From Acidobacteriota bacterium (GTDB taxonomy: Bacteria > Acidobacteriota > UBA6911 > RPQK01 > JAJDTT01), in the NCBI GenBank assembly GCA_965263035.1, contig OZ253580.1, forward strand, positions 5,472,001 through 5,536,000: DNA of 64,000 nucleotides, given 5' to 3'. The notes under the pieces were generated by a model. That model searched no databases and had not been told where the DNA came from. It saw nothing but the letters and a program-made list of their open reading frames with translations. Position numbers and translations under genes: made by a program. Position 1 is the stretch's first letter; every line of letters begins with the position of its first letter. Positions 34,297 to 49,416 of the stretch are shown here, one piece after another.

Positions 34297-37179
34297 ATGG
34301 AATTTTTTCAAGAGTTGTTCGGGACCTTTCTAATCGCCCTTGCGGCCTTTCTCCTGGCCGGGGTGATCCTGACTGTTGTTACCGCCGTTCTTGGGTGGTC
34401 GTTCTATCAAGCTCGGCGGCGGATAGATCACCTCGCCGCTCGCGCCAGCACCCTGGCGACGATGCTCGTTTCCAAGACACCCGCGTCGCAGGAGGGCGAG
34501 TCCGCTTGGGAACCCGGTCCTGCTGCCGGGTCGGAACGGACCGATTCACGGCGCTCCTTCCGCTTCCGTGACCACCCCGTCCTGACCATCGCTCTAGCTG
34601 TCGGTTTGTTCATGATCTTCTTCGGAGGGTTGCTGATCCCCTTTCTGCTTCTGGCCACCTTTCCCGTGGTTCCAGTCGTCCTTGGGGTGTTGCGGCATAG
34701 AGCTCAACGACGGATACGGGTACTGACCGCTCGAATCACCGCCTTGGAGGCAGAGCTGGCCGCCGGAACGCCCTCGTCCACACCGGCCGCCGTCGCAGTC
34801 CCGAGCTCGCCGGCAGCAGCGGCGGCGACGGAGCTGCCGGTGGAAGAAACGGAGGAGGTGGCCAAACCCGATCGGGAACCGGACCCTGCCAAGCCGGCGT
34901 GGTCCGATGCGCTGCACTCGTTCCTCTTCGGCGGCAACACCCTGACGCGGGTCGGCGTCATCCTTCTATTCTTCGGTTTCGCTTTCTTCCTGAGCTACGC
35001 GGCCGAACAGGGCTGGTTCTCGATCCAGCTCCGCCTGAGTGTCGCCGCGGCCGCCGGTGTTGCCCTGCTGACGCTTGGATGGCTCCTGCGGGACTTGCGC
35101 CGAGAGTATGCGCTTGCGCTGCAAGGCGGCGGCGCAGGCATCGCGTACCTCACTGCCTTTGCGGCCGTCAACTCTTACGATGTGATCGGCTCCGGGGCCG
35201 GGTTGTCTGCCATGATCCTGCTGGTCGCGGTCACCGGGGCTCTGGCGTTGAGGCAGGACGCGCCGAGTCTGGCTTTATTGTCCTCGCTGGGTGGATTCCT
35301 GGGCCCGGTCCTGGTCACCCGCGACGCCAGCCACGTGGCACTCTTCTCCTATTATGCCGTTCTCGACATCGGGATCGTGGCCGTGGCATGTTTCCGGGCC
35401 TGGCGCCTTCTGAGCCTGCTCGGGTTCGGGTTTACGTTCCTCGTCGGCGCTCTGTGGGGGGCCGTGTTCTATCAGCCTCAGCATTTCGCCACGACCCAAC
35501 CGTTCCTGGCTCTGTTCCTCGCACTCTTCGTCGCGGTTCCGGTACTGCATGCGTGGCGTCAACCGCCGCGGCTTGTCGGGTTCGTCGACGGCACCCTCGT
35601 CTTCGGAGTGCCGCTCGCGGCTTTCATCCTCCAGCATCGGCTCGCGAGCGGATTCGAATACGGTCCCGCGGTCAGTGCTCTCGCCTTTTGCGTCTTCTAC
35701 GCAGTCGTGGCCAGCCTGGTCAATGGCCGAGGTCGTGACTCGTTGAGGCCGCTGGTGGAATCGTTCGTCGCTCTCTCGGCAGTCTTTGGCACGCTTGCAA
35801 TCCCGCTCGCGGCGGACGAGCACTGGATCTCCGTTGGGTTGGCGATTGCGGGCGCGGCGATCGTCTGGATCAGCACCCGCCAGAATCGCCGCCTGCTCCT
35901 GCTTTCGGGAATCGGAATTCAGTTCCTGGCGGGCTGCATCGCTATCGGCGGGCATTCGTCGAGCGCTCTATCTGTACTGGACGTGGGACACCTGACGGTG
36001 GCCCTGTCCGGCCTCGTTTCGGCCTGGTTCCTGCGTCGACGCGAGGTGGTGGGCGTGGATTCGCGTCTGATCTCGGTGGTGGCGCTCATTTGGGGGTCGC
36101 TCTGGTGGTACGGAACCGGCGTCAACGAAATCTCGCGGCATCTGTCATCGCTCGACCAGGATTGCGCAATCCTCGCGTTTGTCGCCATCAGCGCCGCCGC
36201 GTTCGTCCTGCTGCGAACCCGGCTCGACTGGAAGGACTTGGCGTACCCGCCATTGCTTCTGCTCCCCGCGATGGTGCTTCTGACCATCGACTGGATCTCC
36301 ACGGCACCTCATCCGCTCGCCGGCTGGGGCGCCCTCGCCTGGCCGGCCGCGGTCCTGGTTCAGTATTGGTTGCTGTGGCGTTGCGAGACCGACTGGTCAA
36401 GAGCGACGCCCTGGGTCCACTGCGGCACGCTGTGGCTCGGCGTGTTTCTGGTTTGGCGGGAAGCCATGTGGCTCAGCGGGCAGATCGCCTCTGACGATCC
36501 AAGGTGGCCGTTCGTCATGTGGGCCCTCGTACCAGCTCTTTTTCTCTGGGCGCTCATGACGTTTCGGACTTTTCTTTCCTGGCCGATCGAGCGTTTTCGG
36601 CAGATCTATCTCGGCGTCGGGCAACTCCCCCTGGTGATCACCGTCTCGGCCTGGATGCTGGTTGCCAGCTTCCATCCGGGTGCTTCCCATCCGCAGAGCT
36701 ATATTCCGCTCCTGAATCCTGTCGAGTTCGTACAGTTGTTCTCCCTGGGTGTCCTGGTCCAGTGGTCGATGGCGGACGCCCGCATGAGGGTAAGCGCGAT
36801 CCGGTGGCCGACGCTCGGATTCATTTCGTTCGTGGCGCTGAACGGGGCTCTCGCCCGCACGGTCTGCCGCTTCCTCGAATTACCGTTCGAGGCCCAGGTG
36901 CTCCTTTCCTCCGGGCTGTTTCAGGTCATCTTGTCTGTCGTCTGGACGACCGCTGCCCTGGTCACCATGCTCGTTGCAACCCGGACGAGGCGCCGTCCCG
37001 CCTGGCAAGTCGGCACCGCCCTGCTGGTGGTGACCGTGATCAAGCTGCTCTTGTTCGACCTCGCCGATACCGGCACGCTGACGCGGATCGTATCTTTCAT
37101 AGTCGTGGGCGGTCTCATCCTCATCGTCGGCTATTTCTCACCGTTGCCGCCCAAAGACGCCGAATCGAAGAGAGACTGA
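34297..37179 (+). CDS. DUF2339 domain membrane protein
   Basis: FLFGGNTLTRVG, LQGGG, KLLLFDLA..RIVSF..VGYFSPLPP; many TM segments. Confidence 0.85.
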   Translation: MEFFQELFGTFLIALAAFLLAGVILTVVTAVLGWSFYQARRRIDHLAARASTLATMLVSKTPASQEGESAWEPGPAAGSERTDSRRSFRFRDHPVLTIALAVGLFMIFFGGLLIPFLLLATFPVVPVVLGVLRHRAQRRIRVLTARITALEAELAAGTPSSTPAAVAVPSSPAAAAATELPVEETEEVAKPDREPDPAKPAWSDALHSFLFGGNTLTRVGVILLFFGFAFFLSYAAEQGWFSIQLRLSVAAAAGVALLTLGWLLRDLRREYALALQGGGAGIAYLTAFAAVNSYDVIGSGAGLSAMILLVAVTGALALRQDAPSLALLSSLGGFLGPVLVTRDASHVALFSYYAVLDIGIVAVACFRAWRLLSLLGFGFTFLVGALWGAVFYQPQHFATTQPFLALFLALFVAVPVLHAWRQPPRLVGFVDGTLVFGVPLAAFILQHRLASGFEYGPAVSALAFCVFYAVVASLVNGRGRDSLRPLVESFVALSAVFGTLAIPLAADEHWISVGLAIAGAAIVWISTRQNRRLLLLSGIGIQFLAGCIAIGGHSSSALSVLDVGHLTVALSGLVSAWFLRRREVVGVDSRLISVVALIWGSLWWYGTGVNEISRHLSSLDQDCAILAFVAISAAAFVLLRTRLDWKDLAYPPLLLLPAMVLLTIDWISTAPHPLAGWGALAWPAAVLVQYWLLWRCETDWSRATPWVHCGTLWLGVFLVWREAMWLSGQIASDDPRWPFVMWALVPALFLWALMTFRTFLSWPIERFRQIYLGVGQLPLVITVSAWMLVASFHPGASHPQSYIPLLNPVEFVQLFSLGVLVQWSMADARMRVSAIRWPTLGFISFVALNGALARTVCRFLELPFEAQVLLSSGLFQVILSVVWTTAALVTMLVATRTRRRPAWQVGTALLVVTVIKLLLFDLADTGTLTRIVSFIVVGGLILIVGYFSPLPPKDAESKRD

Positions 37180-37353
37180 TGCACCGGAACGAACGGCGGC
37201 TTTCCCAACCAGACACGAATGCAACAATGAACGTGGCCGAGCCGAGTCCTCGCGGATCCCGCATGGGTCTGTCGAGGCTGAGCGGCCTGGGCCGGCTTTG
37301 TGTCAGACGTGGACACAACGACGTGCGTGAATGACCTTAACCGGGACAGGACC

Positions 37354-38844
37354 ATGCCCGAATCCAAGAGCGATACCGAGCACATCAATAGAGGAATGAC
37401 CGATACGGGCAGCATCGGGGGCGAATCGGCGCCGCGCAACACTTCGCCACTGCCAGACGCTCCGGCGCGTAATGTTGGAAGAACGCCGTTCCAGCACCCG
37501 TTCCGAGTCGGCGCGGGAGTGCAGCAGGCCGTCGCGTGGGTGAACACCGTGATAGTGGTGGGGCTCTTTGTCGCCCTCCTGGGCATATGGGCTCACTGGC
37601 TGTTCAGTGGCGGTGACGAGGCTTCAACGGATTCGATCACCAGCACTGGATCGATCCACGAGGCCGCCCCGCATTCGGCCGGGGATACCGATCTCCGTTC
37701 GTCGGTCGCATCGACGCCGACGGCGGAACCTTCAACGGCGAGGGCGGACGAGGATTCCCTCAATCTAAACCAAAGGGATCGCCGCCGCATTCAATCGGGC
37801 CTGAGGGCCTCGGGCCTCGATCCGGGACCCGCGGATGGCCATTTCGGCGCCGGTACGCGTGGGGTGATTCGAAACTGGCAGGCGGCTCGCGGTGTGCCGG
37901 CGACCGGCTATCTGAACTCGGTCGAGGCCCAAGAGCTGATCGCCTTAGGCACCCGTAGAGGCGCAGGCGTTCCCGCCGAGACGCCGCAGCCAGTCGGAGA
38001 CGATCGTCACCCTGCGACCGGTCTCGAATTCCCGTCGATCACCAGCCGCGGCGCCACGAAGGGCAGAACCGTCAACGACAGAAGCCGCGTCACCGGCAGC
38101 CGCGGTAACGACAACCTCACCGGCACTGACTCAGACGACACCATCAGCGGCCGGCACGGGAAGGACATCCTGAACGGCGCAGCGGGCAATGACAGGCTCG
38201 ACGGCGGCTTCGGCGACGACACCATCAACGGTGGCAGCGGTGACGATACCATCTACGGTGGACATGGGAACGATTTCATTGACGGGGGCCAGGGCAGCGA
38301 CGTCATCGATGGCGGTTTCGGCAACGACACCATCCATGGAAAGAACGGGGACGACAGGATTCGTGGTTCGCACGGCAACGACCTGCTTTTCGGTGGGTCA
38401 GGTGCCGATAACCTCGACGGCCGCTTCGGCGACGATGCCATCTACGGCGGGACCGGTGACGACATCCTCGCGGGCGGGCCCGGCAGGGATGTTTTTCACT
38501 TCGACGAACGGCATGGGATCGATCGGATCACAGATTTCAGGCCTCAGCAAGACCGGATCGATGTCAGCAAGCTTCCGGTTGGCGGGTTCGAGAACTTGAG
38601 TCTGAAAACTGTGAGACGTGGTGTCCGGATCGATCTGACAGGCGTGGGCGGAGGCACGGTTCTGCTCGTCGGCTTGACGCTCGCTGACCTGAATGCGACG
38701 CACTTTGTGTTTGGCTCCATCATTGGGGGTGGCAGGGACATGCACGCGATCGATGCCGAGGAGTTGATTGTTCTGGGTAGTGGCGAAGGAGAAAACGTTC
38801 GGGCCGAGGCGAGGAGACCTGCCGTAACGAATCGTGTCGGATGA
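37354..38844 (+). CDS. TM + peptidoglycan-binding domain + RTX (hemolysin-type Ca-binding) repeat protein
   Basis: IQSGLRASGLDPGPADGHFGAGTR..WQ..TGYL; repeated GGxGxDxI nonapeptides; DRITDF..QDRID; start uncertain. Confidence 0.8.
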   Translation: MPESKSDTEHINRGMTDTGSIGGESAPRNTSPLPDAPARNVGRTPFQHPFRVGAGVQQAVAWVNTVIVVGLFVALLGIWAHWLFSGGDEASTDSITSTGSIHEAAPHSAGDTDLRSSVASTPTAEPSTARADEDSLNLNQRDRRRIQSGLRASGLDPGPADGHFGAGTRGVIRNWQAARGVPATGYLNSVEAQELIALGTRRGAGVPAETPQPVGDDRHPATGLEFPSITSRGATKGRTVNDRSRVTGSRGNDNLTGTDSDDTISGRHGKDILNGAAGNDRLDGGFGDDTINGGSGDDTIYGGHGNDFIDGGQGSDVIDGGFGNDTIHGKNGDDRIRGSHGNDLLFGGSGADNLDGRFGDDAIYGGTGDDILAGGPGRDVFHFDERHGIDRITDFRPQQDRIDVSKLPVGGFENLSLKTVRRGVRIDLTGVGGGTVLLVGLTLADLNATHFVFGSIIGGGRDMHAIDAEELIVLGSGEGENVRAEARRPAVTNRVG

Positions 38845-38905
38845 GTTTGACCTGACGGACAATCCTTCCGGCAGTCTGTCAGAAAATCCCCACGAATCCC
38901 TGGGT

Positions 38906-39589
38906 TCACCCGTCGGACCGTTTTCGGCCGACCAGCACCGAAACCGGGGTTCGACTCCAAACGCACCTGGCGTCGAAGCCCGCCCGGGTCATCGCCTCCA
39001 GCTCCCGCTCCATTGGGAAATACGTATCCTCATCCGACCATTCGGCGAAGTGCCGATAGGCGCGTTCTTCAGGGATTCCGCGCGAGACCATGTGCGCCGC
39101 CCAGGCCGCGTAGTCCGCAGCTCTGCGGGAGGCATCCTCCGGCATGGTCGCGTCGCCGTTGACGAACACGCCGGCCCGGACCAAGGTCTCATGGACGCGT
39201 CCATAGAGTTGGGCCTTGGCGTCCAAGTCCGGTACGTGGTGCAACGCCAGAGAGGCCACAACGGCGTCGCAACGGGGAAGGGCATCGTGAAACGACTGCC
39301 TTCTCAGGCGCACCCGATCTCCAAAACGTTGCAATCTAGCCTGCGCGCGGGCGAGCATTTCGTCGTCGACGTCGATCAACTCGACGACGCTTTCGCCGCA
39401 CTTCTCCAGGATCGCCTCGGACAGGGCCCCGGTTCCGGCGCCCAAGTCGAGCACCCTCTCGGGCTGGCTGAGGGCGACTGTGCGGGCGACCTGCTCCAAC
39501 ATTTGATCGTAGCCCGGAATGAACTGCCGGATGATCTCGTCGTATTCGTCGATTTCAAGATGCAGGTGCCGACGAACGGAGTGGCTCAT
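38906..39589 (-). CDS. Class I SAM-dependent methyltransferase
   Basis: VLDLGAGTG, SLALHH, FIPGYDQM (CmoA-like N-terminus). Confidence 0.85.
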   Translation of the reverse strand: MSHSVRRHLHLEIDEYDEIIRQFIPGYDQMLEQVARTVALSQPERVLDLGAGTGALSEAILEKCGESVVELIDVDDEMLARAQARLQRFGDRVRLRRQSFHDALPRCDAVVASLALHHVPDLDAKAQLYGRVHETLVRAGVFVNGDATMPEDASRRAADYAAWAAHMVSRGIPEERAYRHFAEWSDEDTYFPMERELEAMTRAGFDARCVWSRTPVSVLVGRKRSDG

Positions 39590-39785
39590 GGGTCCAATAA
39601 ACGATCGGCACGCCGTGCGGACCAAAGTGGATACACTGGCGCCATACTCCCTCTAATCCCACCATTGAGTCCCAATTGCAAGTTGAATCGAGGAGGCACC
39701 GCTATGCAAACTCGGGGCACGAGGTACGTAGAAGACACACGGTTTCCGATATAATGGCGCCTTACGCCACGGGGGCAAGTTCGAC

Positions 39786-42590
39786 TTGACGCGTTATTCA
39801 CGGCAGAAATCCTTGCAGGACATCGACTCGGCATTCAGGCGCGGGGGATGGATCGCCACTGTTCTTCTGGTGAGTCTTCTCGTTTCTCCCCATGCCACAG
39901 GGGAAACCAAGTTGGACAAAGTTGAGCTGAACCAGGTCGAGGAGCGCTCCGAATCCCTGGCCAACTCCCTTCTGGAATTCTCGGTGACGGTCCGGGAGCG
40001 GGACATGGCTCGGATCGGCAAGTTCTTCGTGTCGCCGGCCAGGGTGACGGCGTGGCCTTCTCTCTCCGGCGCCACGGATACGGAGTTCAAGTGGATCTCG
40101 ACGGCCGCGCCCCGAATTGCACGGAAGCGTCCGGCGAAGATGACCCGGACTGAACTGATGAAGAACTGGAGCAAGTTTCTGGGAACCTTCTCCTCCGTGG
40201 AGGATGCCCGATTCCAGGTCAAGGGGGCCCGCTTCAGCCAACGGAAGGGGAGAGTCGAGGGCAAGGGGGATCTCAAATTCTTCCTGATCGGACGGGACGG
40301 CAAGAACCATAGATTCTGGGTGAAGGGAACGGGGCGGCTGGTCGCGGTCCAAACTGGGGAGGAGAACTGGCAAATCTCCGAATTCCGGGTAGACGGTGTC
40401 AGGACCATGCGGGCGGCTGCGGACCTCTTCTCCGAGGTCTGCATTCCGGCGGGAGTCTCCATTTCTTTGCCCCGATACGGCGAACCGGGAAACGACGATT
40501 TCGTCTATCACGGCGCCGCCGCGGGAGATCTGGACCGGGACGGGCTGCAGGACTTGGTGGTCACGGGAATCAACCGGAACTATCTCTACCTGAACCAGGG
40601 CGGCCGGTTTCAGGATGTGGCAGACAAGGCGGGAATCTCGGTGACGCCGCCGGGAACGGCTCCTCTGCTCTTCGACTTCGACAACGATGGGGACCTGGAC
40701 GTCTTCATGGCCTCGGTGGGAGAGCAGATGCTGTTCGAGAACCGTCTGGTGCCCTCCGGGAAGCTGCTTTTCTTCGACATCTCGCAAGAGGTCGGCGTAG
40801 CGGTGAATGCCATCGGTTTCAGCGCCACCGCCGGTGACGTCAACGGGGACGGCTGGACCGACGTCTACGTCGCCTCCTACAACCGCTACGGGCGGGTCAT
40901 GCCCGACTCCTGGCACCGCGCATCCAACGGGACTCCGAACCTGCTCTTTCTGAATCAAGGCGATGGGAGCTTCCGCGAATCGGGGGCCGCGTGGGGTGTC
41001 CGCGACCAGCGCTGGAGCTACGCCGCCCAGTTCGCCGACATCAACAGAGACGGACGGCTGGACCTCTACGTGGCCAACGATTTCGGCGAGAACGGCTACT
41101 ACGTCAATTTGGGGGACCGGTTCGAGGATCGGGCCTCCAGCCTGGGGCTTCTGGATCCGGGCAACGGCATGGGCGTCTCCTTCGGCGACTTCAACAACGA
41201 CGGGCGGATCGACCTTTACGTCACCAACATGTCCTCCACCGCCGGGAACCGGATCTTGGACCGGCTGTTTCCGCAGGGAAGGGGCGACCGCAGCGGACTC
41301 AAGAAGCTGGCAGCGGGAAATACGTTGTTCGAAGGGGTGGATGAGGGTGGCTTTCGGGACGTGAGCGCAAAGTTCGGACCGTTCGTCGCCGGATGGGCCT
41401 GGGGCGGAGTCTTCGTCGACTTCGACAACGACGGTTGGGAGGACCTCTACTCTCCCAACGGGTTCATCAGCGGCAAGTCCATGAAGGACACATGAAGCTT
41501 CTTCTGGCGCCACGTCGTGGCGTCCACGGTCGGCGACGAGAAGGCCGGCAACCAGGACTACCAGAAGAACCACATGGCTCTCCTCTTCGAGCAGGGTCTG
41601 TCCTTCAGCGGATTCGAACGGGACGCCCTTTTTCTGAATCGGGAGGGTACCCGATTCCAGGATATCTCAGGGGTCTCGGGCATCGACTCCATCTCCGACG
41701 GACGTTCGGCCGTCACCGTCGACCTGGATAACGACGGCGACCTGGACATCTTTCTCACCACCATCCAGGGGGAAGGACACCTCCTGTTCCGGAACAACGT
41801 GGGCCAGGACAAGGGCTTCATCCGCGTCGAACTGGAGGGTACGAAGAGCGGTAAGGATGCCTTCGGCGCCCAGGTTCGGGTGAAGACTCCCCTGGGTATC
41901 CAGACCCGGATCCTTTCGGGAGGAAACGGTTTCATGGCTCAGCCCGACCGCCGGCTCCTGTTCGGTCTGGGGGAATCCCGGGAGGCCGAATGGATGGACG
42001 TCACATGGCCTTCCGGCGTTCGCCAGCGGTTGGGTCCCATTCCCGCCGGCGTCTCCTTGAAGCTGGTAGAGGAACAACCCGACTACCAGACCCTGTCCCT
42101 GCCGTCGGCCGCTCTACCGGATCCCCTGGAGGAGGAGCAGGTCCTCTGGAGCAAGCTGCAGATCAAGCGGGGCCTACCCCTGCCTGAATTGGCGCTGAAG
42201 ACGCTTCCGGACGGGGAGGAGATCTCCCTTCCGCTGGAAAAGGGAACGTCCTATCTGGTGAATCTCTGGGCCACCTGGTGCGGGCCCTGCCGGCGGGAAA
42301 TGCCAGAGTTGGAGGCCGCCAAGGCCAAGTTGGAAGAGAACGGGATCAAGGTGATCGGTCTCAGTCTGGACCAGGGGGTTCCCCTCGCCGACGTGGAATC
42401 GTATGCCCGAGGCCTGGGCGTGTCGTATCCGATCTACCTGCTGGAGCAGAAGGAATTGAAGAAGATCTTTGCCGGAGACGAAAGGTTCGTCCCCTTCTCG
42501 ATCCTGGTGGACGAGGAGGGCCGGGTCGCCGATAGCCATGCCGGTTGGGGTGAGAAGGCCAAGCGGAAGCTGGATCGGCTCTGCCGGTAA
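39786..42590 (+). CDS. Secreted FG-GAP + ASPIC/UnbV (CRTAC1-like) + TlpA thioredoxin fusion; predicted selenoprotein (UGA at 41493-41495)
   Basis: ORFs 39786-41495 and 41517-42590 are in the same frame, separated only by TGA (MKDT*SFFWRHVV); hairpin follows; C-terminal WATWCGPC. Confidence 0.75.
41506..41525 (+). promoter_or_regulatory. Candidate bacterial SECIS hairpin
   Basis: GGCGCCAC-GTC-GTGGCGTC 8-bp stem starting 10 nt after the UGA; loop begins with GU, 18 nt from the UGA. Confidence 0.6.
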
Positions 42591-42710: not shown

Positions 42711-42911
42711 TGTCTGTTTAATTGGATCCTCCAGGATTCCCTTGCCCGGGAGAGCATGGAACGGAGTCAGAGGGCCGGAGTTCCCCTGTACCTGAGGAAC
42801 TTCATGTGGAACAGCCGGTACGGTGAGTTCCAGGGAGACCAGCTGGAGCTGGCCTTTCGCGATGGAGGCGTGTCCGGATACAATTTCCACGAGACCGGGA
42901 GTAGGAAAAGG

Positions 42912-44243
42912 ATGGAATTCTCCAGACGTGATTTCTTTCGAACGGCGGGACATCTGCATCTCCTGCTGCCGCTCCTATGCTGCATCCATCAGAGCGCTCA
43001 GGCGGAGCAATCGCTCTTCCGGAGCTCCGACATGACCCTGGTGCAGATGAATGGTTTGCGCCTCCGGTTGGGCAAGCCGGTCCAGGTCACGGAGAGCCAC
43101 GGTTACGCCTATGTGCCCACCTTGGCAAGGTTTCCCGGGGGTGAGCTTCTGGTCACCTATTCGCTGGTTCCCGACACCAACGAGAACCCGTCCAACGTGG
43201 GAGCGTTCCAGATCTCCCGGGATGGAGGAAGGACCTGGGGCCACCGATACGAGGTGCTGCCCGAGCACCACCCCCTGATCTATGTGCCCCAGGAGGACGG
43301 CTCCCTGGTGGCCATACCGTCCCACCTGTTTCCCGTTTCCCCTGGAGACAGGCACAATTTCCGGGCTGCCTATCTCCGCTTCGAGCCGGGCGCGCGCCGC
43401 ATGATCCTGGAGCCGGATGGGGTAAGGGTCGTGGACTGGCCCTGGCCCGTGAACGTGGTGCCCCGTCCCGTGCCGAAGTCGAACTGGTACGTGAGAATGG
43501 CCTTCGACGGAATCGCCCTGAAGCTGGAGGACAGATGGCTGGCCACCGCCTACGCCCGGAGGGGAGATGAGCCGATGCAGCTCAACGCCCTCCTTGTCTC
43601 TCGGGACCAGGGACGAACCTGGCGCTACCTCTCCACTATCGCGGACGCCTCGATTTTGCCCACTCCGCCCCGAAAGTGGGCCGGCGGCCCCAGCGAGACG
43701 GCCCTGGTCCGACTCGCCGACGGGGAGTTGATGGCGGTCTTTCGGGTGGGAAACGGACGGGACTGGAACCTGCGCCGGGCCTACAGCAAGGATGGTGGGA
43801 CGACATGGTCCCAAGCCGACGTGATCCCGGCCTACAGCGTGGCGCCCAGCATGGTTCGCACCCGAGGCGGCACCATCGTCCTCTCCACGGGCCGGCCAGG
43901 AATATCGCTCTGGTTCTCTACCGACGGGAGGGGACGCCGGTGGCAGGAGGTGGACGTGGTGAAACACCACAACCTCCACGTCCCAGATGAAACCTACCGC
44001 ATCCTGCCCTATCCGTTTGACAATCCCCGGGAGATGAACACTTGGTCCTACACGGAGCTGGTGGAAGTCGCCCCCAACCGCCTCCTCCTGGTGTACGACA
44101 GAGTGCCGCCCGACCCCAGAATCGTTGCCTATGGAACCGATCCCCGTAGCACCGCGGCGGAGCGCCTGAGCTGGAGGCCCAGTCCCGACTCCAGAGAGCG
44201 GTTCCGCATCTTCCTGCTGCCCATCGAGGTCGAGGGGAACTGA
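42912..44243 (+). CDS. Sialidase-family (BNR/Asp-box) protein with Tat-like signal
   Basis: SRRDFF; Asp boxes SRDGGRTW, SRDQGRTW, SKDGGTTW. Confidence 0.8.
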   Translation: MEFSRRDFFRTAGHLHLLLPLLCCIHQSAQAEQSLFRSSDMTLVQMNGLRLRLGKPVQVTESHGYAYVPTLARFPGGELLVTYSLVPDTNENPSNVGAFQISRDGGRTWGHRYEVLPEHHPLIYVPQEDGSLVAIPSHLFPVSPGDRHNFRAAYLRFEPGARRMILEPDGVRVVDWPWPVNVVPRPVPKSNWYVRMAFDGIALKLEDRWLATAYARRGDEPMQLNALLVSRDQGRTWRYLSTIADASILPTPPRKWAGGPSETALVRLADGELMAVFRVGNGRDWNLRRAYSKDGGTTWSQADVIPAYSVAPSMVRTRGGTIVLSTGRPGISLWFSTDGRGRRWQEVDVVKHHNLHVPDETYRILPYPFDNPREMNTWSYTELVEVAPNRLLLVYDRVPPDPRIVAYGTDPRSTAAERLSWRPSPDSRERFRIFLLPIEVEGN

Positions 44244-44831: not shown

Positions 44832-46283
44832 CTATGCGAGCAGTTTGTCCACCACGTGGCCGCCCACGTCCGTGAGGCGGAATTGGCGTCCCTGGAACTT
44901 GTAGACCAACCTCGTGTGGTCCAGACCCAGCAGATGCAGGATGGTGGCGTGCATATCGTGCATGTGGATGGGGTCTTCCACGATATCGTAGCCCAACTCG
45001 TCCGTCTTCCCGATGGTGATTCCCGGCTTGGTGCCGCCGCCGGCCAGCCACATGGTGAAGGCGTACGGATGGTGGTCCCGTCCCGGATACTTTCCAGGAT
45101 GCTCGTTCATGGGAGTCCGGCCGAATTCGCCGCCCCAGATCACCAGCGTGTCCTCCAGCAGGCCCCGATCCTTCAAGTCCTTGATCAGAGCGGCTGAGGC
45201 CTGGTCGGTCTCCCGGCAGCGGGTCTGCAAGCCCTCTTTGTGGACGATGGACCCCTGGGCGATCTGTCCGTGGTGGTCCCAGCCGTGATGGTAGAGCTGG
45301 ACGAACCGGACACCCCGCTCCACCAGGCGCCGGGCCAGGAGGCAGTTGTTGGCGAAAGACTCCTTTCCGGGCTCGGTCCCGTACATACGGTGGACGTGCT
45401 CCGGTTCGTCGCTGATGTCCATCAGCTCGGGGACACTGGTCTGCATCCGGTAGGCCAACTCGTAGGAGGCGATCCGGGTCAGGATCTCCGGATCACCCAC
45501 GGCCTGGTAACGCTTCTGATTGAGCTTCTTCAGCGCGTCGAGCGACCGCCGGCGCGCCTTGCGGGTCATCCATTCGGGATCGGACAGAAAGAGGACCGGA
45601 TCGCCCTGGGACCGGAACTGCACTCCCTGGTACACCGTGGGAAGGAAGGCGGGCCCCCAGCACGAATTGCCGGCAAAGACCTGCACCGGACCCGATTGCA
45701 GGACCACGAAGCCGGGCAGGTCGCGGTTCTCGCTGCCCAGGCCGTAGGTCAGCCACGAGCCCATGCTGGGCCGTCCGATGAGATGGTGGCCCGTGTTCAT
45801 GAAGAGCTGGGCTGGTGCGTGGTTGAACTGCTCGGCGTGGACGGACTTGACGATGGTGATGTCGTCCACGACCTCGCCAAGGTGGGGCAGCAGCTCGGAG
45901 AGCTCGGCCCCGGACTCACCGTAACGATCATAGGAGTAGGGAGAGGCCAGAACCTGGGGCGTCCCTCGCAGAAAGGCGAACCGTTTGCCGTCCAGCGTGC
46001 CTTCCGGGACGTTCTGGCCATCCAAGGCCGTGAGCCGCGGTTTGTTCTCAAACATATCGATCTGAGACGGACCGCCTGACATGAACAGGAAGATGATGTT
46101 CTTGGCCTTGGGTTCGAAGTGCCCCGCCTTGGGCGCCATGGGATGCCGGGCATCGAGGGCGGGGGCCGCAAAGAGCCCGTCGTCCATCATTCCGGCCAGG
46201 GCGATGGACCCGATGCTCATTCCTCCCCGGAAGAAGAAGTGGCGGCGGGTAACGGCTTTCAGCATCTCCTGTTGGATTTTCAT
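44832..46283 (-). CDS. DUF1501 domain protein
   Basis: TRRHFF Tat signal; [25 protein letters not shown]. Confidence 0.9.
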
Positions 46284-46302: not shown

Positions 46303-49300
46303 TCAAGGTCGAGAGATGGTTTCGTCCAGATTCAGGAGCACCTGGGCCACGCTGGTCCAAGCCATGAAGTCCTTGGAGTCCGGTCCTCGGGACGAAGGTC
46401 GGCTTCGCGCCGCATCCGACCCGGAGCCGGGCAGGTTTTTCAACTGGTCCTGGTACAGAGCCGTGAGCTCCCGGAGCTCCTCCTGGGAGGGCCGGCGGCC
46501 CAGGCAGAGCCGGAATCCGTGTGCGATCCGGTCGGCGACTGCCGGGCTCGTCTCCGAGACCATGCGGCCGGCCAGTCCTCGCGCGGCTTCCATAAAGGTC
46601 CGGTCGTTCATCAAGTTCAGGGCCTGCAACGGCGTATTGGAGCGGCTGCGGGCCACGCAAGTGGTCTCGCGGCTCGGGGCGTCGAAGTTGGCATAGAAGG
46701 GATAGGGACGAATCCGCTTCAAGAAGGTGTAGAGACCCCGCCGGTAGCGGTCGTCTCCCCGACCCGTGATCCAGGTGTCGGCCACGTACAGGTTGTCCCA
46801 GAGCCCTGCGGGCTGGGGAGGAAAGACGCTGGGGCCGTACGGTCTGAGACTGAGGAGCCCCGCGGCGCTCAACGCGCTGTCCCGGATCATTTCAGCGTCC
46901 ATCCGAAAGCGCGGGCCACGGGCGTAGAGCTCGTTGGTGAGGTCCTTTTCCCGCAGGGAATCTCCCATCCGCGAGTCCTGCCGGTAGGTCGCCGAGGTGA
47001 CCATCAATCGGTGCATGGCCTTCATGGACCATTTCTGCTCCACGAACTCGGTGGCGAGCCAATCCAAAAGCACCGGATGCGTCGGGCGTTCACCCTGGGT
47101 CCCCAGATTCTCGGGGGTCTTCACCAGGGGCCTCCCGAAATGATCGGCCCAAAGCCGATTCATGGTGACCCTTCCCACCAGCGGGTTCTCCGGAGAGACC
47201 AGCCAGCGGGCCAGGGTGAGCCGATTGGGCGGCGTCTCGTTCTCGGGCAGGGGATGGAGCACCGAGGGGACACCCGGCTGGACCTCCTTGCCCGGGTTCA
47301 GAAAACCTCCCTTGACGAAGACGTGGCTCGTGCGGGGCTTGTCCAATTCTTTCATGACCAGGCTGTTGGGCGTGGTCAACTGTTTCCAGAAAGCCAGGAG
47401 TTCGGAGAGCCGCTGCTTCTTCGGGGCCAAAATCGGGGCGAATCCGCGATAGTATTCGTTCAGGACCCTCCGTTGGATCTCGGTCCGCTGGTTGACGGGA
47501 ACGGCGAGGACGCGTTCCGCCCGGGTCGGGAGCTTGACGTTTCGGGCGGGATCCTGGTCCCGGGTGACGGAAAACCGGAAACGCCCGATGGTCTTGCCCG
47601 GCTTCTCTCCCTCATGCCTCAACCGGATGTTGAACCGGGTTCCACCCGGAAAGCCCAAGGCAGACTCCGGCATGAAAATGGCTTGGCGTTCGACCCTGTT
47701 CTTGTGACTGGTTCCGCTGTTGGACCAACCGGTGATGGGGTCGCCGTCCAGGACCCGGCGAATGCCGAAGGTAATGGGATCGATCTCCGCCGCGGCACCG
47801 CTGAACACCACCGGCGAGGAGGACCTCGGCGCCGTCATGGGCTCAGCCCGAACTTCGAATCCGGTCAGCAGGAAATCCCCCTCGGAATCCCGGCTCGAAC
47901 CGCCGTGAGGCAGGCTGGGATCGGTCAGGGTTTCCAGCCGGACGGCCGTGATCCCTTCGACCTCGGTTTCGGCCACGACCACGTACGTTTCGCGGCCCGG
48001 TTTCGGTCCTGAAGCCAACAGGGAGCCATCCTCCCGGCGGGTCAGCTCCGCGCCGCCCAGGGAAAAGTAGGTGGCCGGGTCCAGGAAGCTCCAAGAGACC
48101 AGGTCCGCGGCGGTCTTCGCCTCCCATTCCTTCTGAGCCGCCTCCAACTCCGGCGTGGAACGTTTCAGCGCAGCTTTCAGATCCACGATCTCCCGCTCGA
48201 TATCGGAGCGGTAAGTGGACAGATAGTCGGCTGGAGGCAGCGTGATGCTGGCGCTATGTGGCCGGATCTTCGTTTTCGGGTTGTTCTCCTCCATCGTGCT
48301 GTTGAAGAAAGCGAATATCCGGAAGTACTCCTCCTGCGTGATGGGATCGTACTTGTGATCGTGGCACTGGGCACAGGCGATGGTGCTCCCGAGCCAGACG
48401 GTTCCGGTGGTCTCGACCCGATCCAGGATGGCCGCCACCCGATACTCCTCCGGGTCGGTCCCACCCTCGGTATTGATCATGGTGTTGCGGTGGAATCCGG
48501 TGGCGATCTTCTGCTCGGGAGAGGCGTCGGTGAGCAGGTCTCCCGCCACCTGCTCGATGGTGAACTGATCGAAGGGCATGTCCGAGTTGATGGCCTTGAT
48601 CACCCAGTCGCGATAGAGCCACATGTTGCGCCGCCGATCATGGATATAGCCGTTGGTGTCGGCATAGCGGGCCAGATCCAGCCAGGGCCGGGCCCAACGT
48701 TCTCCATAGCGGGGCGACGAGAGGAGGCGGTCCACCAGACGCTCGTAGGCGAGCGGTCGCCGGTCTTCGACGAAGGCATCCACTTCATCGGGAGTCGGCG
48801 GAAGACCGATGAGATCCAGGGTGAGGCGCCGGACCAGGGTTTCCCGGGATGCTTCCGGGGACGGATCCAGACCCTCCTGTTCCAACCGCTCCAGGACGAA
48901 GCGGTCGATGGAATTGTGGACCCAGGCCGAATTCTTCACCTGCGGCAAAGGGAGACGGACCGGCTTGACGTAGGCCCAGTGTTTCTTTGGGGTGTCGCCC
49001 GTACCCTCGATGGCCCCGGTCCAGGGGGCTCCCTGATCCAACCAGGCTCGGATCACCTCGACCTGGTCCGGCGGCAGCTTGCCCGTGAGAGGCATGGGAG
49101 ACCCCGGGGCGTCGCCAAGGATCTTGCGGTAGAGCAGACTCGAGGAGCCGTCACCGGGCAGGATGGCCGGTCCGGACTGCCCCCCCTTCAGGGCCGCCTC
49201 CCGGGTATCCAGGCGAAGACCGTTCATGCTCTGGTCCACGCCGTGGCACTGGTTGCAACTGGCCTCGAGGATGGGCCGGATGTCCCGGGCGAAGTCGACG

Positions 49301-49416
49301 TCCCGGTCCGCGGAGGGGGACGAGCCCGATCCGCTCATCAGAGAAACGGTGCTCAAACCACTCAAAAAGAAGAGAAATATCCAGTTTGGGAATCGCAAGA
49401 CTCGCGCCCACCGCAT
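46303..49416 (-). CDS. PSD1 (DUF1553)/DUF1549/planctomycete cytochrome c domain protein
   Basis: CNQCH, CAQCHDHKYDP, YGERWARPWLD, NTPLQALNLMN. Confidence 0.9.
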   Translation of the reverse strand: MRWARVLRFPNWIFLFFLSGLSTVSLMSGSGSSPSADRDVDFARDIRPILEASCNQCHGVDQSMNGLRLDTREAALKGGQSGPAILPGDGSSSLLYRKILGDAPGSPMPLTGKLPPDQVEVIRAWLDQGAPWTGAIEGTGDTPKKHWAYVKPVRLPLPQVKNSAWVHNSIDRFVLERLEQEGLDPSPEASRETLVRRLTLDLIGLPPTPDEVDAFVEDRRPLAYERLVDRLLSSPRYGERWARPWLDLARYADTNGYIHDRRRNMWLYRDWVIKAINSDMPFDQFTIEQVAGDLLTDASPEQKIATGFHRNTMINTEGGTDPEEYRVAAILDRVETTGTVWLGSTIACAQCHDHKYDPITQEEYFRIFAFFNSTMEENNPKTKIRPHSASITLPPADYLSTYRSDIEREIVDLKAALKRSTPELEAAQKEWEAKTAADLVSWSFLDPATYFSLGGAELTRREDGSLLASGPKPGRETYVVVAETEVEGITAVRLETLTDPSLPHGGSSRDSEGDFLLTGFEVRAEPMTAPRSSSPVVFSGAAAEIDPITFGIRRVLDGDPITGWSNSGTSHKNRVERQAIFMPESALGFPGGTRFNIRLRHEGEKPGKTIGRFRFSVTRDQDPARNVKLPTRAERVLAVPVNQRTEIQRRVLNEYYRGFAPILAPKKQRLSELLAFWKQLTTPNSLVMKELDKPRTSHVFVKGGFLNPGKEVQPGVPSVLHPLPENETPPNRLTLARWLVSPENPLVGRVTMNRLWADHFGRPLVKTPENLGTQGERPTHPVLLDWLATEFVEQKWSMKAMHRLMVTSATYRQDSRMGDSLREKDLTNELYARGPRFRMDAEMIRDSALSAAGLLSLRPYGPSVFPPQPAGLWDNLYVADTWITGRGDDRYRRGLYTFLKRIRPYPFYANFDAPSRETTCVARSRSNTPLQALNLMNDRTFMEAARGLAGRMVSETSPAVADRIAHGFRLCLGRRPSQEELRELTALYQDQLKNLPGSGSDAARSRPSSRGPDSKDFMAWTSVAQVLLNLDETISRP

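Follow-up and report, generated by a model that had tools for sequence, protein, structure and literature searches.

A predicted selenocysteine within a CRTAC1/ASPIC-UnbV-like propeller protein of an Acidobacteriota bacterium

Does an in-frame TGA between two open reading frames of an Acidobacteriota bacterium terminate a protein or encode selenocysteine (Sec)? The window analyzed here is a stretch of 64,000 nucleotides, in which a single TGA (41493-41495) links an upstream ORF of 569 aa with a TTG start (39786-41495) to a downstream ORF of 357 aa in the same frame with a GTG start (41517-42590). The codons around it read AAG GAC ACA TGA AGC TTC TTC TGG CGC CAC GTC GTG GCG TCC. Read through, the frame has 934 codons, ends with a TAA stop (42588-42590) and yields a product of 934 residues with U570 in SGKSMKDT-U-SFFWRHVVAST. 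Based on the sequence comparisons presented here, it is very probable that this is one gene whose internal UGA is decoded as selenocysteine to give a single predicted selenoprotein. The original prediction reached this interpretation from the shared frame, a hairpin 10 nt downstream of the TGA, an FG-GAP propeller that continues across it (DNDGWEDL on the N side, DLDNDGDLD on the C side) and the lack of a Shine-Dalgarno sequence for the second ORF. Sequence and translation agree with this description, including the absence of a purine-rich Shine-Dalgarno sequence ahead of GTG 41517. The selenocysteine interpretation is supported and withstands each refuting condition stated with the prediction, with one reservation that concerns the residues of distant homologues. 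SelB and Sec-tRNA(Sec) would decode UGA 41493-41495, directed by the stem-loop 10 nt 3' of it, in the manner of a bacterial in-ORF SECIS. The features of the locus are as follows.

39786..42590, + strand: whole predicted selenoprotein gene, 934 codons including UGA-Sec570; putative TTG start (first start codon of the frame), TAA stop
39786..39905, + strand: presumed Sec-type signal peptide, residues 1-40, with a basic N-terminus followed by hydrophobic WIATVLLVSLLV (inferred from sequence)
39918..40430, + strand: N-terminal alpha+beta domain, residues ~45-215, a long helix followed by long curved strands (model secondary structure)
40503..41855, + strand: FG-GAP/VCBS beta-propeller, residues ~240-690, with repeated DxDxDG calcium-type motifs (Pfam, Foldseek)
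41493..41495, + strand: UGA predicted to be read as selenocysteine, U570, motif D-T-U-S-F-F-W-R (frame, conservation)
41505..41527, + strand: candidate bSECIS hairpin (U)GGCGCCAC - GUC - GUGGCGUC(CA) (folding, bSECIS model)
41859..42053, + strand: UnbV/ASPIC domain, residues 692-756 (Pfam PF07593, 54.4 bits against a cut-off of 23.4)
42171..42545, + strand: TlpA/ResA-like thioredoxin-fold domain, residues 796-920 (Pfam, Foldseek, phmmer)
42279..42290, + strand: C832-G-P-C835 active-site motif of the thioredoxin-fold domain, just ahead of helix 833-851 (Cys offsets from Sec)

The product is likely an exported protein of five parts: a signal peptide, an alpha/beta domain, a propeller with an insert, a UnbV/ASPIC domain and a CGPC-containing thioredoxin-fold domain. 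Orthologue alignments span residues ~20-40 to 932-934. The AlphaFold2 model of the 934-residue protein has a pLDDT of 90.2 and a pTM of 0.89, with pLDDT below 50 for residues 1-24 and 26-40. Pfam has no family for residues 40-238, even at E <= 10. The propeller is recognized by FG-GAP_3 (1.4e-40, 138.1 bits) and FG-GAP (2.4e-21, 75.6 bits), both above cut-off. The thioredoxin-fold domain is matched by Redoxin (50.3 bits) and AhpC-TSA (48.6 bits) in Pfam, by ResA, TlpA, StoA and Etrx2 in Foldseek (TM 0.6-0.8 on target) and by PDB chains in phmmer. NCBIfam has no dedicated model for the family; only thioredoxin-domain models match, all below their cut-offs. Sec570 had been placed in a loop of a CRTAC1/ASPIC-UnbV-like protein. 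The family assignment holds, but the loop does not: the modeled propeller carries a helical insert (helices 570-582 and 590-602), and Sec570 is the first residue of its first helix.

The hairpin follows the UGA after a 10-nt spacer and consists of an 8-bp stem, GGCGCCAC paired with GUGGCGUC, closed by a 3-nt loop, GUC, which begins with GU as predicted. Folded alone, nucleotides 41505-41527 have an energy of -13.0 kcal/mol (with a bulged extension), a value equaled by 2 of 200 shuffles. According to the criteria given in PMC13188914 (section 5, Fig. 2 legend), a bSECIS has an apical loop of 3-9 nt, an upper stem of 4-16 bp, G in the first two loop positions, a UGA-to-loop distance of 16-37 nt and a minimum free energy at or below -7.5 kcal/mol. 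The site agrees with the model on 4 of 4 criteria, with a loop of 3 nt, a stem of 8 bp, a G-U loop start, a spacing of 18 nt and an energy of -12.0 to -13.0 kcal/mol. The combination of UGA and hairpin is more than chance, because none of 561 control positions, taken from other in-frame positions of the same locus, does as well by the model. A strict, bulge-free version of the model describes 27 of 41 Sec sites compared to 7.2% of control positions; 14 of the 41 fall short of -7.5 kcal/mol when bulges are disallowed, and one site (L113) lacks any qualifying hairpin in the scan of all 41. The energy of the wider context is uninformative. The 76-nt context does not fold unusually well compared to shuffled sequences (z -0.43), and 48-nt windows in other genomes give z values of about -1.9 to +0.6. 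Whole-context folding energy does not discriminate in a genome of 62% G+C and was therefore replaced by the in-gene bSECIS test, synonymous-site diversity and pair counts.

Nowhere in the gene is synonymous variation lower than directly after the TGA. Of 364 windows along the gene, the 10 with the least synonymous-codon diversity are confined to -2 to +7 codons from the UGA. Stem codons are frozen in 23 orthologues (CGC 23/23, CAC 23/23, GTG 23/23 and GCG 21/23), whereas the loop codon varies freely in the same sequences (GTC 11, GTG 11, GTT 1). Pair 24-34 is paired in all 34 sequences, as CG in 29, GU in 3 and UA in 2. Stems that differ between lineages are nonetheless complementary: beside GGCGCCAC/GUGGCGUC there are GGCGUCA/UGACGUC, GCGGCA with UGUCGC or UGCCGC, GGCGCGC/GUGCGCU, GGGUUGC/GCAGCCC, GGGCUGU/ACAGCCC and GGGCCGU/ACGGCCC. 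The hairpin is thus conserved in homologues, as the original prediction anticipated, with compensatory changes between lineages. Pair counting in a fixed register finds changes on both sides at one pair only, since the residues encoded by the stem are themselves conserved and the register of some lineages is offset by a single base. Direct comparison of lineages shows the covariation more clearly.

The TGA is conserved well beyond the species. All 23 orthologues (54-100% identity), from 23 of the 41 genomes of the order, have it at the same column. So do a 36%-identical paralogue group that includes the genome's own copy, 44 of 47 best matches at E <= 1e-40 in a sample of 401 genomes of the phylum, and 23 of 80 named-genome loci from Acidobacteriota, Planctomycetota, Verrucomicrobiota, Gemmatimonadota and Ca. 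Multivorans. Because related genomes share ancestry, these counts overstate the number of independent observations. SFFWRH, the segment between the TGA and the next possible start, is kept through synonymous changes and is the most conserved motif of the family. The original prediction expected homologues with Cys or TGA at this column rather than variable residues. Both expected forms exist, a true Cys codon being found in L144 (TGC) and L173 (TGT) and Cys also in P0003, P0006, P0007, P0045 and P0057. More distant TGA-less homologues did not conform, carrying Ser, Ala, Asn, Gly, Glu, Leu or Val. The Sec residue is therefore dispensable in part of the wider family. No operon is conserved around the gene: the 306-aa ORF upstream of it occurs only in members of the genus, and the BNR-like gene downstream has a counterpart in a single relative. 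An assembly error is excluded because independent assemblies of four phyla share the TGA.

The genome encodes the machinery to read UGA as Sec, as it should if the prediction is correct. A tRNA-Sec was found (69 bits; called SeC with anticodon tca by ARAGORN), together with SelA (444 bits), the SelB wing domain (74.9 bits) and SelD (297.5 bits). TGA is otherwise an ordinary stop, and the commonest one; it closes 1365 of the genome's 2164 open frames of 500 codons or more and 4 of 7 neighboring genes, in line with the earlier conclusion that neither code 4 nor code 25 is used. A Sec-type FdhA, sought as a SECIS comparator, was not found in the genome, and its SelD is without Sec. The machinery must therefore serve other genes, and those of the Sec-containing CRTAC1-like family may be among the ones that keep it in use in this genome. 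Since SelA is present in 297 of the 401 sampled genomes of the phylum, a test of association with the Sec machinery across genomes has little power. Among the 43 genomes of that sample with a TGA form, SelA is found at E <= 1e-60 in 38, as a fragment at a contig end in 1, and tRNA-Sec only in 4, such that all 43 have SelA or tRNA-Sec. SelA was not found in three nearly complete TGA-form genomes (G009, G333 and G117), all of which have tRNA-Sec.

The distribution of cysteines suggests what the residue may do. U570, C832 and C835 are the only Cys/Sec positions conserved across the orthologues, with C832 and C835 at +262 and +265 from Sec. In 59 of the 72 different genes with Sec, a CxxC pair lies 230-310 residues past Sec, and 3 more genes are cut by the end of a contig or locus. 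The remaining 10 end ~201-224 residues after Sec without the CxxC domain, and all 10 have Cys at +2 (UxC), a residue seen in 0 of the 59 fused forms. In one set of Sec loci the CxxC pair occurs in 30 of 30, and in a larger set in 59 of 65. Apart from the three genes that are cut, Sec is always accompanied by a nearby thiol partner, either a fused CxxC domain or UxC. The three TGA-less relatives in the phylum sample (Ser, Leu and Glu at the column) all lack the thioredoxin domain. However, P0002 (Leu), P0005 (Val), P0008 (Ser), L114 (Glu) and L143 (Glu) have a fused CxxC despite a non-Sec column, so the link between Sec and CxxC is not absolute in the other direction. The Cys forms P0006 and P0007 are without the fused domain.

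This pattern is consistent with an extracytoplasmic selenol/thiol redox relay with Sec570 as the redox-active nucleophile, a role to which we would give roughly an even chance. Sec570, at the N-terminus of its helix, would react with an oxidant or an oxidized substrate, and the selenenic acid or selenenylsulfide so formed would be reduced by the fused CxxC domain. Where a relative lacks the CxxC domain, the vicinal Cys of the UxC motif may carry out the reduction. The CxxC domain could in turn be recharged by a membrane electron carrier of the DsbD/CcdA type; the genome has a DsbD_TM gene.

Explanations other than selenocysteine must account for the same observations. A lone in-frame stop in an otherwise intact frame looks like a fresh nonsense mutation, as if a CRTAC1-like gene had recently become a pseudogene with its downstream part decaying. 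The N-terminal 569-aa fragment is indeed filed as a separate protein in public sets, where many N-terminal fragments of 527-611 aa end at the TGA, which bears out the prediction that such genes would be annotated as two. Yet the TGA occupies the same column in every orthologue down to 54% identity, in nearly all of the phylum matches and in three other phyla. Purifying selection acts on both halves, the domains past the TGA are intact, and the probability of a pseudogene is negligible. Nor does the arrangement fit two genes well, with a stop at the UGA and a restart at GTG 41517 to give subunits of 569 aa and 357 aa. A GTG-started ORF does begin 21 nt after the TGA, and a degree of termination at a Sec-UGA is to be expected when selenium is scarce. 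This GTG, however, is without a Shine-Dalgarno sequence and falls within the 3' arm of the conserved hairpin, and the six codons between it and the TGA encode the conserved SFFWRH. Homologues with a sense codon are single proteins, and a break here would split a propeller region that the model folds as one body. Separate subunits are accordingly very improbable. That the TGA and the frame after it are conserved demonstrates read-through rather than the identity of the inserted residue, and a downstream hairpin can stimulate ordinary read-through too. Insertion of a standard amino acid (Trp, Cys, Arg or Gly) by a near-cognate or suppressor tRNA nevertheless has only a very small chance of being correct, given a full Sec machinery kept without a Sec-type FdhA or Sec in SelD, SelA or tRNA-Sec in every TGA-form genome of the phylum sample, a hairpin that fits a SelB-type bSECIS in spacing, loop size and G-U loop start, and Cys homologues and a UxC/fused-CxxC rule that are typical of redox Sec.

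If Sec is inserted, it might instead serve as a ligand of a metal or cofactor bound by the propeller and not as the redox partner of CxxC. Sec is a metal or cofactor ligand in formate dehydrogenase and [NiFeSe] hydrogenase, and the propeller is full of metal-type DxDxDG motifs. TlpA-type domains serve metal-center assembly, and the titles of PDB entries 4txo and 4txv place TlpA with the copper chaperone ScoI and with cytochrome oxidase subunit II. TGA-less homologues also tolerate Ser, Asp or Glu at the column, residues able to bind metals. On the other hand, no other conserved His or Cys adjoins Sec, and His575 is replaced by Gln in paralogues. The strict alternation of fused CxxC with vicinal UxC is what a requirement for a resolving thiol predicts, and the start of a helix, where Sec lies in the model, is where redox nucleophiles are usually found. 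A ligand role is unlikely, although it has a better chance than the explanations without selenocysteine.

Among known systems, E. coli fdhF is the archetype of an in-ORF SECIS gene. Like other SelB-dependent genes, the present one has the UGA directly before a stem-loop with a small G-U-starting loop 18 nt away, selA, selB, selC and selD in the genome, and Cys homologues. Unlike them, the host is a CRTAC1-like beta-propeller and not a molybdopterin enzyme or a thioredoxin-fold protein. The order of an FG-GAP propeller followed by a UnbV/ASPIC domain is that of CRTAC1/ASPIC-UnbV proteins, and the top Foldseek match is the crystal structure of murine CRTAC1 (9etn_A; E 1.3e-26, TM 0.73 on target; phmmer E 3.8e-23). 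The Sec-bearing segment (~residues 483-632), however, is not aligned to CRTAC1 by sequence (phmmer), and only the present protein has the added N-terminal alpha/beta domain and C-terminal thioredoxin-fold domain. To our knowledge, CRTAC1 proteins have no assigned enzymatic activity. The C-terminal domain shares its fold and CxxC motif with TlpA/ResA/CcmG-type oxidoreductases, but here the putative catalytic partner is a propeller. The NCBIfam scores of the C-terminal domain are far below cut-off (ResA 65.1 vs 170; TlpA 57.1 vs 230), and it is therefore a relative of these domains rather than an orthologue, belonging with them only at the level of the Redoxin/AhpC-TSA fold with a CxxC motif. 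Neisseria PilB (Trx-MsrA-MsrB) is a thioredoxin-type domain fused to the enzyme that it recycles. A similar logic is proposed here, in which a fused reductase domain beside the catalytic chalcogen residue would receive electrons from a carrier of the DsbD/CcdA type.

Most catalogued bacterial selenoproteins have Sec in a Trx-like CxxC-type motif, in thioredoxin-like folds (PMC13188914). Families of this type (UGC-TlpA, WAxxUGC, Redoxin UxxC) resemble the present protein in being exported selenoproteins that include a TlpA-like thioredoxin fold. Sec replaces the first Cys of the Trx motif in those families, whereas the Trx motif of the present protein is a plain CGPC, with Sec 262 residues upstream of it in a different domain; the score against NF041054 is 36.5 compared to a cut-off of 300. 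The view that this is not a classical selenoprotein family is correct for the PMC13188914 catalogue (2026), whose Table 1 of 119 families/subfamilies has no FG-GAP, UnbV/ASPIC, CRTAC1 or D-[TL]-U-S entry. The terms of the family occur 0 times in PMC13188914, BSepDB, deep-Sep, a 2022 review and the GOS paper (main texts), and no paper was found in the published literature that describes a Sec-containing FG-GAP/ASPIC-UnbV family in its main text. Main-text passages of Kim et al. 2016 (PMC4807772) point to S9 Table for selenoprotein candidates and do not mention FG-GAP; neither the Sec site and its SECIS nor the distribution across phyla or the CxxC/UxC rule is analyzed in them. The family is widespread and absent from the main texts and tables of current selenoprotein catalogues.

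Finally, the results bear on how bacterial selenoproteomes are counted and on a family of propeller proteins. Annotation splits this gene and hundreds of similar ones into a pair of truncated proteins, an 'FG-GAP/VCBS repeat' and a 'thioredoxin/peroxiredoxin' protein, and as a result the selenoproteomes of Acidobacteriota, Planctomycetota and Verrucomicrobiota from soil and sea are undercounted. A large selenoprotein on a propeller scaffold, presumably exported unfolded via the Sec translocon, departs from what is usual in catalogues of bacterial selenoproteins. Selenocysteine is the mark of a catalytic site, and the site marked here belongs to the CRTAC1/ASPIC-UnbV family; the association of Sec with a fused CxxC or UxC makes a redox mechanism directly testable. 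More tentatively, and at somewhat less than an even chance, bacterial CRTAC1/ASPIC-UnbV propellers, or at least a large branch of them, may constitute a new class of extracytoplasmic chalcogen-based oxidoreductase. Their nucleophile, Sec or in some cases Cys, would stand at the start of a helix inserted in the propeller and be recycled by a thioredoxin-fold domain fused in cis or by the vicinal Cys of UxC. If true, this would be the first biochemical activity for a family that includes human CRTAC1, and would reveal a non-thioredoxin scaffold for selenium catalysis outside the cytoplasm.

The TGA at window positions 41493-41495 lies within AAG GAC ACA TGA AGC TTC TTC TGG CGC CAC GTC GTG GCG TCC, and the open reading frames at 39786-41495 and 41517-42590 share one frame, as the original prediction held. 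When the TGA is translated as selenocysteine (Sec, U), the product has 934 residues, with U570 in the context KDT-U-SFFWRHVVAS. The hairpin also matches its earlier description: a spacer of 10 nt, GGCGCCAC, the loop GUC and GUGGCGUC. Folded in isolation it has an energy of -13.0 kcal/mol, equalled by 2 of 200 shuffles; in this G+C-rich gene, the energy of the full surrounding context is uninformative. As an ordinary stop, TGA is used more often in this genome than any other: of 2164 open frames with 500 codons or more, 1365 end in it, as do four of the seven genes neighbouring the Sec gene. A genetic code that reads TGA as sense, already argued against in the original prediction, is therefore excluded.

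An orthologue (54-100% identity) is present in 23 of 41 genomes of the same order, a set that includes the window's own genome. All 23 contain exactly one in-frame stop, a TGA, and column and motif are identical in the alignment. A paralogue group with a TPR tail (~36% identity) has its TGA in KDL-U-SF[FL]WRQVVSQSP. The genome's own second copy, L015 (G000:C1:3454815-3457238, + strand), belongs to this group; its ~1400-codon frame has one TGA, in KDL-U-SFLWRQVVSQSP, and also encodes a fused thioredoxin-fold domain (WCPPC) and, at the C-terminus, a TPR region. L015 gives the genome a second selenoprotein gene of this superfamily, and a copy of this type occurs in each of the eight same-genus relatives. 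Across the phylum sample, 45 of 401 Acidobacteriota genomes match at E <= 1e-40, and among the 47 matches listed at that threshold 44 have one TGA and three have none.

Named public genomes yielded 80 loci, 79 of them alignable across the Sec column and 23 with TGA there. The latter come from Acidobacteriota (Pyrinomonadaceae, Vicinamibacteria, Bryobacterales), Planctomycetota (Phycisphaerae, Pirellulaceae, Mariniblastus, Planctomycetaceae) and Verrucomicrobiota (Akkermansiaceae, Roseibacillus, Verrucomicrobiales), and likewise from a Gemmatimonadetes MAG and Ca. Multivorans. Motif-bearing loci without TGA have Cys codons (TGC in L144, TGT in L173) or else Ser, Ala, Asn, Gly or Glu. Protein-database homologues have Cys in five proteins and Ser in many, the others having L, V, E, D, Q, T, I, R, A or N. 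The expectation of Cys or TGA at this column was borne out for many homologues and failed for those with other residues. Part of the family keeps Sec or Cys at the column, and another part has given it up.

Synonymous sites of the gene vary least around the UGA. When synonymous-codon diversity was scored in 364 windows of 10 codons across the 23 orthologues, the ten least diverse windows all lay at -2 to +7 codons round the UGA. The stem codons are frozen (Arg CGC, His CAC and Val GTG in 23/23, Ala GCG in 21/23), and the loop Val codon is free to vary (GTC 11, GTG 11, GTT 1). Pairing in the stem holds for 88% of cells over 34 distinct sequences and falls to 34-81% if the 3' partner is shifted; pair 24-34 is never unpaired (CG 29, GU 3, UA 2). 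The UA pairs, in L069 and L083, reflect an Ala-to-Thr change matched by a synonymous CGC-to-CGT change. The position of the hairpin is constant across lineages while its stem sequence differs, so the conserved downstream hairpin called for by the original prediction is found.

In the phylum sample, ten loci (L074, L078-L082, L084, L086, L087 and L090) have VVAA instead of VVAS after the Sec. In these loci the Ala codon at the old stem position is free (GCT, GCC, GCA, GCG); it forms a one-base bulge, and pairing is taken over by the next codon, GCC. Synonymous constraint shifts together with the structure.

The bacterial SECIS (bSECIS) model, as set out in section 5 of a 2026 review (PMC13188914), has a loop of 3-9 nt with G in its first two positions, a stem of 4-16 bp, a UGA-to-loop distance of 16-37 nt and a minimum free energy <= -7.5. 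The window site satisfies all four criteria, at -12.0 kcal/mol, and none of 561 other in-frame control positions in the same locus is as good. A strict, bulge-free version fits 27 of 41 Sec sites; for control positions the mean is 7.2%. A hairpin is present at 40 of these sites, in 33 of them with 16-18 nt between the UGA and the start of the loop; the scan found none at the remaining site, L113.

The genome, a single contig of 6.2 Mb, encodes the full set of Sec machinery sought: tRNA-Sec (Rfam, 69 bits; ARAGORN type SeC, anticodon tca), SelA (444 bits), SelB (wing domain, 74.9 bits, inside a 696-codon frame) and SelD (297.5 bits). SelD (L053, G000:C1:556908-557825, + strand) lacks an internal stop and is therefore not itself a selenoprotein; its open frame of 756 codons, against a SelD model of 311 positions, may reflect fusion to another domain. 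No formate dehydrogenase was found in the genome at the family cut-off, and none with an internal stop. With neither a Sec-type formate dehydrogenase nor Sec in SelD, the machinery is not kept for the two most widespread bacterial selenoproteins.

SelA is present in 297 of the 401 phylum-sample genomes (a tally that takes in unpublished G016, G063 and G182), so its co-occurrence with the Sec gene is a weak test. The TGA form occurs in 43 genomes. SelA matches at E <= 1e-60 in 38 of them and as a fragment at the end of a contig in one; the other four give a strong match for tRNA-Sec and none for SelA. Three of these four, G009, G333 and G117, are 95-99% complete, with tRNA-Sec at 71-76 bits; a search for SelA (PF03841) gave weak matches of 35-40 bits in G009 and G333 and nothing in G117. 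SelA may be unassembled or divergent in these genomes, or there may be another route to Sec-tRNA. Taken to the limit of sequence evidence, recoding of the TGA as Sec is established.

Pfam domains of the Sec protein (+ strand).
FG-GAP repeats
Residues 692-756, UnbV_ASPIC
Residues 796-920, Redoxin/AhpC-TSA/Thioredoxin

A confident AlphaFold2 model from a 39-row alignment (pLDDT 90.2, pTM 0.89) has residues 1-40 disordered, an alpha/beta domain at about 45-215 and U570 opening a helix at 570-582. The basic N-terminus, with a hydrophobic stretch behind it, is a presumed signal peptide. The first Foldseek match is murine CRTAC1 (9etn, E 1.3e-26), followed for the C-terminal domain by ResA, TlpA, StoA and Etrx2. 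NCBIfam holds no dedicated model, and its ResA and TlpA models score well under their cut-offs.

Sec invariably comes with a partner thiol. The only Cys/Sec positions conserved across the orthologues are U570, C832 and C835. In the phylum search, a CxxC pair lies 261-283 residues past the Sec in 30/30 Sec loci, and the alignment of three TGA-less relatives (Ser, Leu, Glu) ends at residue 762, short of the thioredoxin domain. A first tally of 65 distinct Sec genes gave 59 with CxxC, three cut by the locus end and three without; Cys stands at +2 in each of the last three, which end about 201-218 residues past the Sec. One of them served as query for a further search, which gave eight matches in five genomes, each with one TGA; the seven new ones are all U-x-C with no further Cys downstream. 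The final tally of 72 Sec genes has 59 with fused CxxC, three cut and 10 UxC (71 and 58 without L046, from unpublished G016), and Cys at +2 occurs in 0/59 fused forms; the counts are descriptive and do not serve as tests, as related genomes are not independent. Exceptions run the other way, in some TGA-less proteins that have Leu, Val, Ser or Glu in place of Sec and still have the CxxC domain, and in two Cys forms without it.

Sec570 may be a redox nucleophile that the fused TlpA-like domain or, in UxC forms, the vicinal Cys would recycle; a DsbD/CcdA-type carrier would recharge the TlpA-like domain. Thioredoxin-fused periplasmic methionine sulfoxide reductases offer a possible analogy for such a relay. 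A role for Sec570 as a metal ligand is a live alternative to that of redox nucleophile. The genome has a DsbD_TM gene. The only one of its type found (G000:C1:1477250-1477369, + strand, and 1482811-1483452, - strand; 824-codon frame) lies ~5 kb from selB, a proximity that may be coincidental.

Genes near the Sec gene in the window.
34297-37179, +, DUF2339 membrane protein
37300-38844, +, RTX-repeat protein with a peptidoglycan-binding domain
38834-39754, +, 306-aa ORF without a Pfam match, overlapping the RTX-repeat gene by 11 nt
42756-44243, +, BNR/Asp-box repeat protein
44832-46283, -, DUF1501 gene, adjoining the next
46303-49416, -, PSCyt1/PSCyt2/PSD1 (DUF1549/DUF1553, 'planctomycete cytochrome c') gene

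Conservation of the flanking genes ends at the genus, and they give no functional hint; the three searched (RTX-repeat, 306-aa and BNR) were not found beside the Sec gene outside it. The last two genes are presumably a recurrent pair of unknown function. Elsewhere, at about G000:C1:3690040-3690453 (+), a TPR-like region precedes a thioredoxin-fold domain with the active site FFSPG-U-GPC (in-frame TGA), which resembles a selenoprotein of the UxxC thiol-disulfide oxidoreductase type, a catalogued kind.

Table 1 of the 2026 review (PMC13188914) lists 119 prokaryotic selenoprotein families or subfamilies, and no FG-GAP, UnbV or CRTAC1 protein is among them. The family terms were not found in the main texts of that review, BSepDB, deep-Sep, a 2022 review and the GOS paper; passages of the main text of Kim et al. 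2016 (PMC4807772) point to its S9 Table and do not mention FG-GAP. Literature searches found no paper whose main text describes the family. As judged from its sequence, the Sec gene is a genuine selenoprotein of an uncatalogued and barely documented family.
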